Of a DNA stretch of 64,000 nucleotides, positions 24,703-31,212 are shown piece after piece. Made by a program: the position numbers and the translations under genes. The stretch is taken from IMG/VR virus record IMGVR_UViG_3300025759_000058; one strand, 5' to 3'. Positions within the stretch are counted from its first letter, which is position 1. Every line of letters begins with the position of its first letter. The stretch is from a virus. The notes beneath the pieces are model-generated. The model saw nothing but the letters and a program-made list of their open reading frames with translations, ran no database searches and was not told the origin of the DNA.

Positions 24703-25473
24703 ATGATTAAATTACGTGACATATTACAAGAATTAGATTACGGTAAAAAACTATTTGCTCATGACCCGGACGATCAAATCGCCGATTATCCGTTTGATTG
24801 GGATAAATTTATTGAAAAGTTATATTCACCGGACTTCGAAGCTAATACATGGGCCGAAGATGCTATGCTTAAAGCATTGCAAGCTTATACTTCCGGTAAA
24901 CAAGGCCGTACCGATACATTAGCCAACATGTTGCGTAAATTGTTACCTCTCAAATCCAAATTCCCACGTATATTAGATCCGATGGGTAACACTACAAAAC
25001 CGCCATCCTGGAAGATGGATTTAGATTGGGCTGCTGATTATCCTGATCATGCATGGCGAGGCACTCGTGTGACCCCTGCGTGGGCACATGGTCAATTGGC
25101 CAATCCATCGGTATACCGCACCATTGCAATATCTCAAGCATGGTCCACACTCGATGGACCTGCGGACAACCTAAAAGCATACATCATCGATGATGGATCT
25201 GTAACCTATCGATCTAAGGGTGAGGCTATGATATCATTTTCCGAATCCCCACGTACTGCACTTAATTTTGCTAAAAAAGCGAGTGGTAATACTTTGCCTG
25301 TTATATTAGGCGTATCTAAACGGCATCCGGAATTGATCATGAATATAGATTCCATGGAGGCCTTATCAGAATATAATGAAGCCGAAATGTTTCTTTTGAA
25401 CAGTACCTTTAACCCCGATGTTATTGTATTTTTAGATCCATGGAGTCCAGACTATATAGCATCCTTAGTATGA
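24703..25473 (+). CDS. R-S-E ADP-ribosyltransferase paralog 1 with N-terminal tag
   Basis: AWRG...ISFSES...EAEMFL; N-terminus MIKLRDILQE. Confidence 0.7.
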   Translation: MIKLRDILQELDYGKKLFAHDPDDQIADYPFDWDKFIEKLYSPDFEANTWAEDAMLKALQAYTSGKQGRTDTLANMLRKLLPLKSKFPRILDPMGNTTKPPSWKMDLDWAADYPDHAWRGTRVTPAWAHGQLANPSVYRTIAISQAWSTLDGPADNLKAYIIDDGSVTYRSKGEAMISFSESPRTALNFAKKASGNTLPVILGVSKRHPELIMNIDSMEALSEYNEAEMFLLNSTFNPDVIVFLDPWSPDYIASLV

Positions 25474-25527
25474 CTTACTTTACATAAGTACTTGATATTT
25501 ATTAATAGATACAAGGAATAATTGTTT

Positions 25528-26283
25528 ATGATACGACTTACCCAATTACTACAAGAAATAGATGCCCCGATAGCTGGTATTGCTAATTTAGTAGCATTAA
25601 ATGCCACAGGGTCTGGCTCAGATACCGAATCGGTCGAAGATTTATCATTTAAATTTAGGTCTAAGAAAGGCCGGAAGACGAAGGGTGTATTAATTCATGA
25701 CATCATTACTATAGATGTATTTAATTCTCCTGGCAAAGAAAATATACAATTATTACCATACCATTTAATCTTTGGAGAATCGAGTATGGCAATTTTTGAT
25801 GCGTTCGGTGCAAATGAGGTCGCCGGACTTAAACGAAGTGATTGTCAAGCACATTTAGATAAATTAGCTGCAGAAGGAAAGACGGAAGCCGATGATGCAT
25901 TTATAGCCGGACTTGTTAACTTTGCAGGAGAGAAAATATTTCAGTTTATCAATGTAACAAGAGCATCGATTCCAGGATTCATTAATCGTATTTTACCACA
26001 TGAATCGTTACATATGACTCGATATTTAATTACATTGGAAGGTAATGAATGGATGAGGAATAATCTTAGTACACCAAATTGGTGGGAAGATGATCGTGCA
26101 GTAATGATTGACCTTACTAATGATAATGAAGAATATTTTGCCGAAGTACTTGAACGTATTAATGCAGTTGCTTATGATCGTTGGGCAAAGGCAAAAGGAT
26201 TAATACAAAAGCCTGTAGTTACATCCTTGAAGCCACTTAGCCCGGATGAGTATAAAACACAAAATATTAAGATTAAAAAATAG
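25528..26283 (+). CDS. HExxH zinc-metallopeptidase-like protein with N-terminal tag
   Basis: LPHESLHMT...NEEYFAE; N-terminus MIRLTQLLQE; ATATTTAT at 25495. Confidence 0.6.
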   Translation: MIRLTQLLQEIDAPIAGIANLVALNATGSGSDTESVEDLSFKFRSKKGRKTKGVLIHDIITIDVFNSPGKENIQLLPYHLIFGESSMAIFDAFGANEVAGLKRSDCQAHLDKLAAEGKTEADDAFIAGLVNFAGEKIFQFINVTRASIPGFINRILPHESLHMTRYLITLEGNEWMRNNLSTPNWWEDDRAVMIDLTNDNEEYFAEVLERINAVAYDRWAKAKGLIQKPVVTSLKPLSPDEYKTQNIKIKK

Positions 26284-26292
26284 GAATGATCG

Positions 26293-28736: not shown

Positions 28737-28814
28737 TGTCACAGCTATATGAGTATACCGGTCCAGCAAAATATCGAATTGCTCGTATGAAAGGCAAATG
28801 GGGCAGCTAATAAT

Positions 28815-29606
28815 ATGTTACAATTACGTAGCATAATGAATGAATTCGATTACGGTCGTCGACCGTTAGATGATCCACAAGGCTGGAAGCCTGAAGATGT
28901 ACAGTTAGGCGTCCACTTCCTTAAAAGCCGTTACGGAATGACATTATCAGATTTTGGTTTGGAAGGTGAGCCAAATACGGAAGATGAGAAACAGTTAATA
29001 GCATTCCTTGAAGAATTTTTTGATATGCCAGAAATGGTTGCTAATAAAGCAAAGTTTGCGGATATGTTAAGTGTGCTAGTCAAAGTTAAGTCTAAATTTC
29101 CTAAGTTATTAGATCCGGCACAAGGTACGCCGAAAGAGTTTATATGGAGAGGGGCTACTATAACACGAGATATATTCATGGATCTAAATTGGAAGGTCAT
29201 TAAAAAGGCTGATCCATATCTCGTAGCTACAAGTCCAATCAAGCCAGTTAAACCTAGATCAGGCCGCGGCGTTCATTCTTTTACAGCTGTCTGGCAAACC
29301 GCATGGAAGTTTGCTAATAGACATAATATTCATCCTAATATGTGGCGTATTCCATGCGTTTTTAAGATAAGTGTAAAAGATAAAAATACATTATTTAATC
29401 CTATGTTTTTAAATACAATTGGAATGTGGAGTGAGTTTGAAGTACTATATGTAGGCGATAGTTTTAAGCCGATAGAATATCAAATACCATCATATGTCAT
29501 TAAACGTATAATGTCGCTTCAAAATAAAGCTGATCAAACTCCGGAGGTTGCTGCATTTTATTCAAAACTAACGCCAATGGCAGCTGAAATGAAGATCTTA
29601 AAATGA
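28815..29606 (+). CDS. R-S-E ADP-ribosyltransferase paralog 2 with N-terminal tag
   Basis: IWRGAT...VHSFTA...SEFEVLY; N-terminus MLQLRSIMNE. Confidence 0.7.
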   Translation: MLQLRSIMNEFDYGRRPLDDPQGWKPEDVQLGVHFLKSRYGMTLSDFGLEGEPNTEDEKQLIAFLEEFFDMPEMVANKAKFADMLSVLVKVKSKFPKLLDPAQGTPKEFIWRGATITRDIFMDLNWKVIKKADPYLVATSPIKPVKPRSGRGVHSFTAVWQTAWKFANRHNIHPNMWRIPCVFKISVKDKNTLFNPMFLNTIGMWSEFEVLYVGDSFKPIEYQIPSYVIKRIMSLQNKADQTPEVAAFYSKLTPMAAEMKILK

Positions 29607-30457
29607 TTCGGCTTCGTAATATATTACAAGAATTCGAATATGGTGATCGTTTATTCGATGACCCAAAGCAATTTAGTATGACTGCTCGTGCTGATACTAG
29701 CTTCATGAAGTATTGGGCACCATTTATAAATGGCGAAGAAAATACGTCAGATGAATACTATTTATTAAACGCATTAAAGTCTTGGTCCGAAGATCCCCCC
29801 GATGAGAGATGGCTTAATCAACGTGTAGATGACCTTAAGTTTTTACTGACACTTAAAAATAAATACCGAAAAATACTGGACCCATCTGAGAGTAAATTTG
29901 CACATCCTAAGTATGTATTTCGTGTTGCAACAATCCCAATGTCAACAGCTGTTAAAGCATTAAAGACGTTAAGTAGTAATGAACTACGTACGGATTATTC
30001 AAATAAAAATCCTATAGATATTGATATGCCAGTAACTTTAAAGTCTCGAAGTAAACGTGGGTATTATTCGTTTACAACACAATTTAATGTTGCAATGTCA
30101 CTAGCCGGACATGCCCAATTGGGTGCCGCAAAATATGATCAGGTTTACTATTATAAACGAATACCAGCAATTATTAAAGTAGAACATAACTCGCCAAAAT
30201 TATTATTCAATCCGGACTTTTTTGAAGGAATTTCTAGATATGGGGCTGAAAGCGAAACGCTATATGTAGACTCTAAAATAAAAGCAGCTGGTATAGTACT
30301 TCCTACAAACTTCATCGAAGAAATTGTAACAGGAGGTGAACGTTATACGTCAGGCGGCTCGATTGAAAAATACCGAGATTCATTAATAAGCCAGTTTCCT
30401 GATGATCCAGATGTACAGGCATTATATAAAATTCTAGATCCTATAGTCAATCTATGA
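29603..30457 (+). CDS. R-S-E ADP-ribosyltransferase paralog 3 with N-terminal tag
   Basis: VFRVAT...YYSFTT...AESETLY; N-terminus MIRLRNILQE. Confidence 0.7.
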   Translation: MIRLRNILQEFEYGDRLFDDPKQFSMTARADTSFMKYWAPFINGEENTSDEYYLLNALKSWSEDPPDERWLNQRVDDLKFLLTLKNKYRKILDPSESKFAHPKYVFRVATIPMSTAVKALKTLSSNELRTDYSNKNPIDIDMPVTLKSRSKRGYYSFTTQFNVAMSLAGHAQLGAAKYDQVYYYKRIPAIIKVEHNSPKLLFNPDFFEGISRYGAESETLYVDSKIKAAGIVLPTNFIEEIVTGGERYTSGGSIEKYRDSLISQFPDDPDVQALYKILDPIVNL

Positions 30458-31212
30458 TCAAATTACGTAATATATTGCAAGAATTTGATTACGGTAAGCG
30501 ATTATTTGCTGATCCAGAAAATTACGATAATGTACTTGACGCTGATGAATTAGGTCCTATAGGCTATGATAATATATGGGATATAGAAACTGATACTGAG
30601 GATGAGATACGTGCTATGGATTTGTTAAGTACGTTTTATCAAGGCGATTTTGTCGGTTTAGATGAGAGTGAATTAAAGATTCTTATTAAATCGTTGAAAC
30701 GATTAAAGGCAAAATTTCCAAAGATTTTAGACCCAAAGACTAGTCCAGAAATTGAAAAATATGTTTATCGCGGTGCAACTATATCTATAGATGCAATCAA
30801 AGATATGCCATTTAAATTAGTATCTAATGATATAATCTTTACAGTACCAGCTAAGTTCGAAGTACATCCTCGGTCGGGCCGGCCGATGCATTCATTTAGT
30901 GTCGAAAAATATATGGCTGAGTCATATGTGCACGGTAAAGTATACGACTCTATATTAGACCCCGGCCGTATTCCGATTGTAATACATGTTAATGTCAACG
31001 ATCCTAATTTATTATTTTCAACAAACTTTTCGTCATTACATAGTACATTTGATGATGAAAAGGAAGTGTTCTATGCAAACAAAACTATTACAGTGAGTAA
31101 ATTATCAATTAAACACTCACTAGTGCAAGATATATACAAAAATATCTTCGATTTGCCTGAAGACTCAAAATACTATGACGTATATACTAAATTGTATAAT
31201 GTTACAGCATAA
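30454..31212 (+). CDS. R-S-E ADP-ribosyltransferase paralog 4 with N-terminal tag
   Basis: VYRGAT...MHSFSV...DEKEVFY; N-terminus MIKLRNILQE. Confidence 0.72.
   Translation: MIKLRNILQEFDYGKRLFADPENYDNVLDADELGPIGYDNIWDIETDTEDEIRAMDLLSTFYQGDFVGLDESELKILIKSLKRLKAKFPKILDPKTSPEIEKYVYRGATISIDAIKDMPFKLVSNDIIFTVPAKFEVHPRSGRPMHSFSVEKYMAESYVHGKVYDSILDPGRIPIVIHVNVNDPNLLFSTNFSSLHSTFDDEKEVFYANKTITVSKLSIKHSLVQDIYKNIFDLPEDSKYYDVYTKLYNVTA

Follow-up and report, generated by a model that had tools for sequence, protein, structure and literature searches.

To our knowledge, ADP-ribosyltransferases (ARTs) that are injected into the host are among a phage's first weapons, and only T4 Alt has been studied in depth. 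Comparative genomics has made head-packaged ARTs an established theme in myoviruses (PMC9503650), and the route into the T4 head has been worked out on its internal proteins: the N-terminal 10 residues of IPIII are enough for packaging, and the gp21 protease cleaves behind L/I-x-E (PMC9026906). Within this capsid targeting sequence (CTS), which is all that the T4 internal proteins have in common, targeting depends on positions 4 and 7, and processing on positions 8 and 10 (PMC9026906; PMC3012670). Here we analysed a 64-kb stretch of viral DNA (IMG/VR record IMGVR_UViG_3300025759_000058; hereafter the window, in whose coordinates, on the + strand, open reading frame (ORF) and residue positions are given) and focused on four ORFs, 24703, 28815, 29603 and 30454, which very probably encode R-S-E (cholera-toxin-like) ARTs. 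We hold it to be fairly likely that they are Mod-like R-S-E mono-ADP-ribosyltransferases which, in the manner of T4 Alt and the T4 internal proteins, are packed into the head and trimmed before they are injected.

A sequence-only reading of this DNA had described an array of four divergent R-S-E ART paralogs, and we find the ORFs at the coordinates that it gave, on the + strand. Each starts with a 10-residue tag of consensus M-I-K-L-x-x-L-L-x-E; the catalytic sites below were assigned from an 86-sequence alignment.

24703–25473, + strand: ART paralog 1 (ORF 24703), 256 aa; tag (residues 1–10) at 24703–24732; R119 at 25057–25059, S178 at 25234–25236, E226-x-E228 at 25378–25386
28815–29606, + strand: ART paralog 2 (ORF 28815), 263 aa; tag at 28815–28844; R112 at 29148–29150, S155 at 29277–29279, E207-x-E209 at 29433–29441
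29603–30457, + strand: ART paralog 3 (ORF 29603), 284 aa; tag at 29603–29632; R107 at 29921–29923, S156 at 30068–30070, E216-x-E218 at 30248–30256
30454–31212, + strand: ART paralog 4 (ORF 30454), 252 aa, the copy used for the structure model; tag at 30454–30483; R106 at 30769–30771, S147 at 30892–30894, E202-x-E204 at 31057–31065

The tandem ATGA coupling seen in that reading is real, with 4-base overlaps at 29603 and 30454. Its array of four holds for the copies and not for their contiguity, as four unrelated ORFs (25522–28736) lie between ORF 24703 and the trio of ORFs 28815, 29603 and 30454. A scan for sigma-70 promoters and terminators found fewer sites than in shuffled sequences and was uninformative on expression timing.

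The 86 aligned family members are 21–33% identical to ORF 30454 (one close homologue, 54%), and only five columns are invariant among them: E51, R106, S147, E202 and E204 in ORF 30454 numbering. The arginine, the first serine and both glutamates of ExE are each kept in 86/86 members at ~25% identity, with S, T or A at position 149. R, S and ExE, the set that defines R-S-E ADP-ribosyltransferases, therefore make up four of the five invariant residues, and judged from the alignment the conservation of the catalytic motifs is far beyond chance. The full set is retained in all four window copies, so that the triad is intact in each, as had been proposed; because the NAD-binding arginine, the serine of S-x-S/T and the catalytic ExE are all kept, all four copies are probably active enzymes. 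The catalytic arginine of ORF 24703 is R119 (AWRG) in this deep alignment, a 4-sequence alignment having paired R139, and R107 of ORF 29603 stands in the context FRV, not YRG. The other shared motifs that had been noticed are likewise all present: E(L/F)(D/E)YG after the tag, K(F/Y)x(K/R)(I/L)LDP, (W/F/Y)R, SF(S/T) and ExE (as EAE, EFE, ESE and EKE). E51, invariant in 86/86 members, is the last glutamate of an E-x-x-T-x-x-E motif in the N-terminal helical part (residues 45–51 of ORF 30454, 30586–30606). The segments most variable in sequence and length are 21–40, 61–80, 111–140, 161–170 and the C-terminal helices. In known ARTs such loops and helices ring the active site and touch substrates. 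The copies vary most in the terminal helices and in the loops that join the catalytic strands, which fits different substrates.

An AlphaFold2 model of ORF 30454, built with the same alignment, reached a predicted local distance difference test score (pLDDT) of 94 and a predicted template modelling score (pTM) of 0.90. R106 lies in strand 103–111, S147 in strand 146–149, followed by helix 152–160, and E204 opens strand 204–207; in the model, the order and strand positions of R, S and ExE are those of the canonical ART layout. A comparison of the model, made without Foldseek, against 48,161 chains returned ART-superfamily folds at all of ranks 1–24, mostly R-S-E ARTs, and a second-look alignment agreed. 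The best neighbours were Vis (4xzj; Z 6.4, 3.9 Å, 147 aa), a Listeria ART (8za7; Z 5.9), Tre1 (6drh; Z 5.7) and C3bot2 (Z 5.1); further ranks held C2-I, Certhrax, HopU1, ExoS, an iota-like toxin, KptA, C3stau2, XopAI, LT, Arr, TreX, pertussis S1, VIP2, SpvB, Scabin and ART2.2. Sequence identity to the bacterial R-S-E toxins among them is 8–20%. Structure comparison had been suggested as a check on the ART assignment, and this result speaks for the predicted fold. Foldseek against the PDB gave a weak list for the 252-aa model (E 0.1–0.9), mostly pertussis toxin, cholera toxin, Vis, TreX and Tpt1. In the second-look alignment, model residues 103–224 aligned with residues 4–134 of the LT/CT chain and residues 98 onward with pertussis S1 from residue 1. 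Provided that the start of the alignment is ungapped, R106 would fall on Arg7/Arg9 of LT/CT and pertussis S1. In BFVD the best match was a head-morphogenesis-domain protein (E 2.7e-4), with Alt-type ARTs of S-PM2, ValKK3, phiAS5 and others lower down, and ESM Atlas neighbours at 0.92–0.93 included PF03496 and PF26816 clusters, which we treat as a lead only.

All six pairs of the four ORFs matched significantly in BLASTP within a 10-protein database, with E values of 2e-26, 8e-24 and 8e-21 inside the trio and of 5e-12 to 1.5e-9 between ORF 24703 and the other three copies. By these matches the four ORFs are true paralogs, which bears out the paralogy first proposed from the shared motifs. ORF 28101 was considered as a degenerate family member and dropped (BLASTP E 0.1 only; no match to the family's hidden Markov model). 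In a profile search of 1.84 billion representative proteins, the family comprised 439 representative clusters at E ≤ 1e-3, of which 42 reached E ≤ 1e-30. Among 50,697 phage records, neither megablast with the locus nor tblastn with ORFs 30454 and 31222 produced a match, and a scan of 185,579 prokaryote species genomes with close patterns found no relatives of the ART family. As far as these searches reach, the family is viral and previously unnamed, with no curated model that recognises it.

T4 Alt, ModA and ModB had been named among the enzymes that use this triad, and in profile comparisons ModA and ModB come out as the nearest sequence relatives. With single T4 sequences, hhalign gave probabilities of 14% for ModB and 11% for ModA, with YRG paired with (Y/W)RG and SFS with SFT/SAS; against a Mod profile of T4 ModA, ModB and six homologues (all PF26816; a shallow set of 8 sequences), the probability was 70% and E 4e-5. 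A permissive alignment to this profile was collinear over 175 columns, with the ExxTxxE helix motif, YRG, SF(S/T) and ExE all in line, and it paired the family's invariant E51 with the invariant E36 of T4 ModA/ModB. The Pfam Mod model (PF26816) did not match the four ORFs at E ≤ 1, and given this and the profile alignment, the family is best described as Mod-like and unrecognised by the Pfam model. T4 Alt scored an hhalign probability of only 0.2–0.3% against the family, with no match to Pfam PF03496, and links to the Alt/VIP2 type are at the level of fold only.

We next turn to the tag, which is the second most conserved 10-residue block of the family, with M1, L4 and E10 its most conserved positions, and which is poorly ordered in the model (pLDDT 66, versus 96 for residues 11–20). 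Tag DNA differs between the copies by synonymous and other changes, so conservation is at the amino-acid level; since the tags are alike in peptide and not in nucleotides, it is selection on the peptide, rather than recent recombination, that maintains them. A pattern scan found the tag on 8 of 10 consecutive ORFs in 24036–32988 and on ORF 4006, and in BLASTP the tagged window proteins were mutually unrelated save for the ART paralogs. Besides the four paralogs, the tagged ORFs are:

24036–24686, + strand: tagged non-ART ORF, 216 aa, in the same tagged cassette; weak serine-hydrolase match below the Pfam cut-off
25528–26283, + strand: tagged non-ART ORF, 251 aa, with an HExxH motif
28119–28736, + strand: tagged non-ART ORF, 205 aa; weak acetyltransferase matches below the Pfam cut-off
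31225–32988, + strand: fifth, distant ART of the QxE type with the same tag, 587/588 aa, directly after the array; R222 at 31885–31887, S256-x-S258, Q310-x-E312 at 32149–32157 (16-member alignment)
4006–4851: tagged non-ART ORF, 20 kb from the 24036–32988 cluster, found in the pattern scan

The same tag start occurs on ORFs of phages Mel-JY01 and immuto and of IMG/VR contigs. The strict tag is present in 61 of 154 family representatives, and many others start with a different CTS-like sequence, M-K-H/Y-I/L-K-L-F-E-Q-F. A second tag type, M-[RK]-x-x-E-[FL]-[RK]-x-L-I-[KR]-x-E-I, heads the window ORF at 23636–23869 and a run of ORFs in a related contig (L013, 8828–10747), where one ART member carries it before its own start motif. 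In Mel-JY01 (PP395634.1), three tandem paralogs at 60276–62718 bear the tag followed by a common I-S-D-R-V-W-H; they have no Pfam match and do not belong to the ART family. Pfam scans of tagged ORFs in related phages were uninformative.

These relatives also supply a setting for the tag. The baseplate wedge protein is 53% identical to that of Microcystis phage Mel-JY01 and 42% identical to that of Flavobacterium phage immuto, which places the phage near these two cultured phages, and a gp21-type protease (Peptidase_S77) scores above the curated cut-off in Mel-JY01, in immuto and in an IMG/VR contig, G003. In immuto the protease gene sits within a gp20 ... protease ... gp23 module, the gp20-gp21-gp23 layout of T4. 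In G003 it occurs together with a tagged member of the ART family and four more tagged ORFs, and the small ORFs that flank it (4000–3686 and 2732–2181) start with the same tag or with the second tag type. A literature search for Mel-JY01 turned up no paper. In the window itself, a ClpP-family protein (46265–46861; PF00574, E 3.5e-31; PHROG "head maturation protease") adjoins an HD-domain protein and may be a prohead protease or an accessory ClpP.

The fifth ART broadens the set beyond the four paralogs. Its ART-fold domain covers approximately residues 175–350 (31744–32271; model pLDDT 80), flanked by about 170 aa on the N-terminal and 240 aa on the C-terminal side, and its structural neighbours are Vis (Z 7.8), C3bot2 (Z 6.9) and SpvB (Z 6.5); Foldseek against the PDB with the 588-aa model gave no match at E ≤ 0.001 and an uninformative list. 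YRG, S-x-S and N-Q-x-E are invariant across the 16 members of its family. In hhalign this family aligned to that of the four paralogs with a probability of 83% (E 8e-6) and the motifs paired, and to Mod with a probability of 7%. An orthologue in a related contig, L001, holds the same place, after the array of that contig.

The sequence-only reading had proposed duplication and rapid divergence, and the history of the copies did not bear this out. Among 14 related IMG/VR loci (counts refer to the DNA fetched around each locus), the copy number is five in one, three in another and one in each of the rest. The tree joins ORF 24703 to L001_6670 (support 100/98; 45% identity) and ORF 30454 to L001_10780 (support 100/99; 55% identity) and leaves ORFs 28815 and 29603 as long lone branches, and in it L001 and a further contig, L008, share a paralog clade that has no counterpart in the window. 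With orthologues in L001 and a clade that the window does not have, the duplications predate the split between the phages, and the repertoires differ by retention and loss; by this tree the duplications are old, with differential retention.

The domain also occurs in other settings. In about 30 of 154 representatives it lies inside longer proteins, several times downstream of an HExxH segment, and such embedded domains often follow directly after [LIVF]-x-E, ahead of an x-x-Y-G domain start. We found the ART domain within proteins of 280–1600 aa (P0139, P0140 and other long matches), and a Pfam scan of ten long family matches returned stray domains only and no ART model. This arrangement suggests protease-processed polyproteins in other phages. 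The separate tagged HExxH ORF (25528–26283), taken together with the HExxH-ART fusions elsewhere, fits the picture of polyvalent proteins and head-packaged ARTs (PMC9503650).

Capsid delivery through the tag is likely, and it is the best-supported mechanism by analogy with T4. We infer enzyme activity, packaging, cleavage, injection and the arginine or protein nature of the targets in the following form: the tag would bring the protein into the prohead core, a gp21-type prohead protease would remove it after L-x-E, the trimmed enzyme would be injected together with the DNA, and it would then ADP-ribosylate host macromolecules at the very start of infection.

Several results weigh against this account, and they bear on different parts of it. 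On the side of the enzyme, scanning the four ORFs and the genes around them with Pfam and PHROG brought up nothing significant, and PDB sequence searches with 4- and 86-sequence profiles gave no ART match (the best, E 0.12, was an unrelated protein). With the 252-aa model, nothing in Foldseek against the PDB reached E ≤ 0.001, so that of the proposed Foldseek check the ART-dominated list stands and a significant match does not. Every structural Z-score for this model is below 8, a range in which a common arrangement alone can explain a match, and the Mod link has a probability of only 70% from a shallow 8-sequence profile. The low Z-scores and the lack of a significant sequence match to curated ART models are what a fortuitous likeness would predict, the proteins then being non-enzymatic internal head or scaffold-associated proteins whose conserved residues are structural. 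We regard this as very improbable: R, S and ExE, in canonical order and on canonical secondary-structure elements, account for four of the five invariant residues, ART-superfamily folds occupy ranks 1–24 of an unbiased search of 48,161 chains, and the motifs are collinear in the Mod profile alignment. As the Z-scores are modest, we draw support for the fold from the uniform list of ARTs, the coverage of residues ~16–224 and the motif positions together. The proteins could also have the ART fold and not modify protein arginine, acting as NAD+ glycohydrolases or as modifiers of nucleic acids or small molecules, for example against NAD-dependent or ADP-ribose-signalling defence. The R-S-E fold takes in NADases and DNA/RNA modifiers, Tpt1/KptA and Arr are among the structural neighbours, the fifth ART has QxE, a motif seen in non-Arg enzymes, and the nearest relative, ModB, also transfers NAD-capped RNA (PMC9503650). 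The top structural neighbours, by contrast, are protein-modifying toxins. ExE, which accompanies arginine modification in characterised R-S-E enzymes, is invariant in 86/86 members, and on balance we find this alternative quite unlikely.

On the side of delivery, no gp21-type protease was found within the 64-kb window, and a search with the A2 profile found no member of the ART family in Mel-JY01 or immuto, though both bear the tag. The [LIVF]-x-E before internal copies of the domain also means that the end of the tag could partly belong to the domain and not only to a propeptide. Active ARTs that are not packaged and act inside the infected cell once synthesised, as ModA/ModB do, would agree with the lack of such a protease in the window, with the position of the array, which is not beside head genes within the window, and with its nearest relatives, ModA/ModB, which are non-virion proteins. 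The tag would then have another role, for example as a shared element of the mRNA or of translation initiation, as a signal for degradation or for a chaperone, or in directing the protein to another assembly. However, it is conserved as protein and not as nucleotides, has the length and the terminal L-x-E of the T4 CTS, stands on small ORFs beside the gp21-type protease gene of G003 and co-occurs with a T4-type head module in relatives, and different lineages put different CTS-like tags on the same domain. These observations make unpackaged enzymes unlikely in our judgement, and we favour packaging and injection.

Further genes in the window concern the phage and its host. They include a SusC-like TonB-dependent receptor (CarboxypepD_reg, Plug and barrel; 15807–18530) and a protein of 902 aa with a CHU_C type IX secretion domain at its end (34407–37115), both Bacteroidota hallmarks and unusual cargo for a phage; judged by the CHU_C domain and the SusC-like receptor, the phage appears to infect Bacteroidota-type bacteria. 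A pair of a CobS-like AAA ATPase and a CobT-like protein lies at 10076–13822 (PHROG matches to porphyrin/cobalamin biosynthesis), and such pairs are seen in many aquatic myoviruses.

A wider interpretation, which we put forward tentatively, is that in a T4-like lineage infecting Bacteroidota the region 24036–32988 does functionally what the internal-protein locus does in T4. At least 8 capsid-delivered enzymes (five ARTs together with hydrolase-, HExxH- and acetyltransferase-like proteins) would form a variable arsenal there, with every ART paralog directed at a separate host target or defence system and the tag acting as a portable signal for loading into the capsid, and other phages would encode the same modules as polyproteins that a protease processes. 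If true, the CTS principle reaches beyond T-even phages to Bacteroidota phages. The findings describe an ART family that is widespread in metagenomes (439 clusters) and joins a catalytic domain of the Mod kind to a probable delivery tag like that of Alt and the IPs, up to five-fold per genome, and they offer a natural paralog set for asking how the substrate choice of ARTs evolves. They also suggest the tag as a candidate short signal for loading foreign proteins into such phages.

Set beside described systems, the window ORFs resemble ModA/ModB in being small (about 200–280 aa) single-domain R-S-ExE ARTs of a myovirus encoded by adjacent paralogs. ModA/ModB, however, lack a capsid-targeting tag and are early products of the infected cell, whereas the window has four copies and a distant fifth, each tagged, and a family-specific KSKFPxILDP segment. 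T4 Alt is closest to the proposed delivery, as an ART of a T4-type phage that has a short N-terminal propeptide, is packed into the head and is injected (PMC9026906, PMC9503650). It, too, begins with what reads as a hydrophobic/acidic peptide of 10 residues, the last of them E, but Alt has 682 aa and extra domains, and the packaging of the window proteins is predicted from their genes. The bacterial R-S-E toxins (Vis, Tre1, C3, C2-I/iota/VIP2 and LT/CT) share the fold and the R / S-x-S / ExE arrangement; unlike them, the window ORFs have no secretion, translocation or immunity partner and stand in a viral context. The polyvalent and MuF-fused phage effectors (Iyer et al. 2017, 2022) have a parallel in the occurrence of the same ART domain in long multidomain phage proteins, but those effectors are one polypeptide and the window modules are separate genes, each with its own tag. 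Like IPI, IPII and IPIII of T4, the window cluster consists of otherwise unrelated, fast-diverging proteins with a common N-terminal peptide of ~10 residues ending in L/I-x-E. It differs from them in the sequence of the tag, in belonging to another phage group (the relatives of immuto and Mel-JY01) and in its cargo, which is mostly predicted enzymes, five of them ARTs, with a packaging deduced from genes. The kind of system, as in T4 Alt, Mod and the internal proteins, and the mechanism itself are thus already known; the family, its multiplicity and the host lineage are new.

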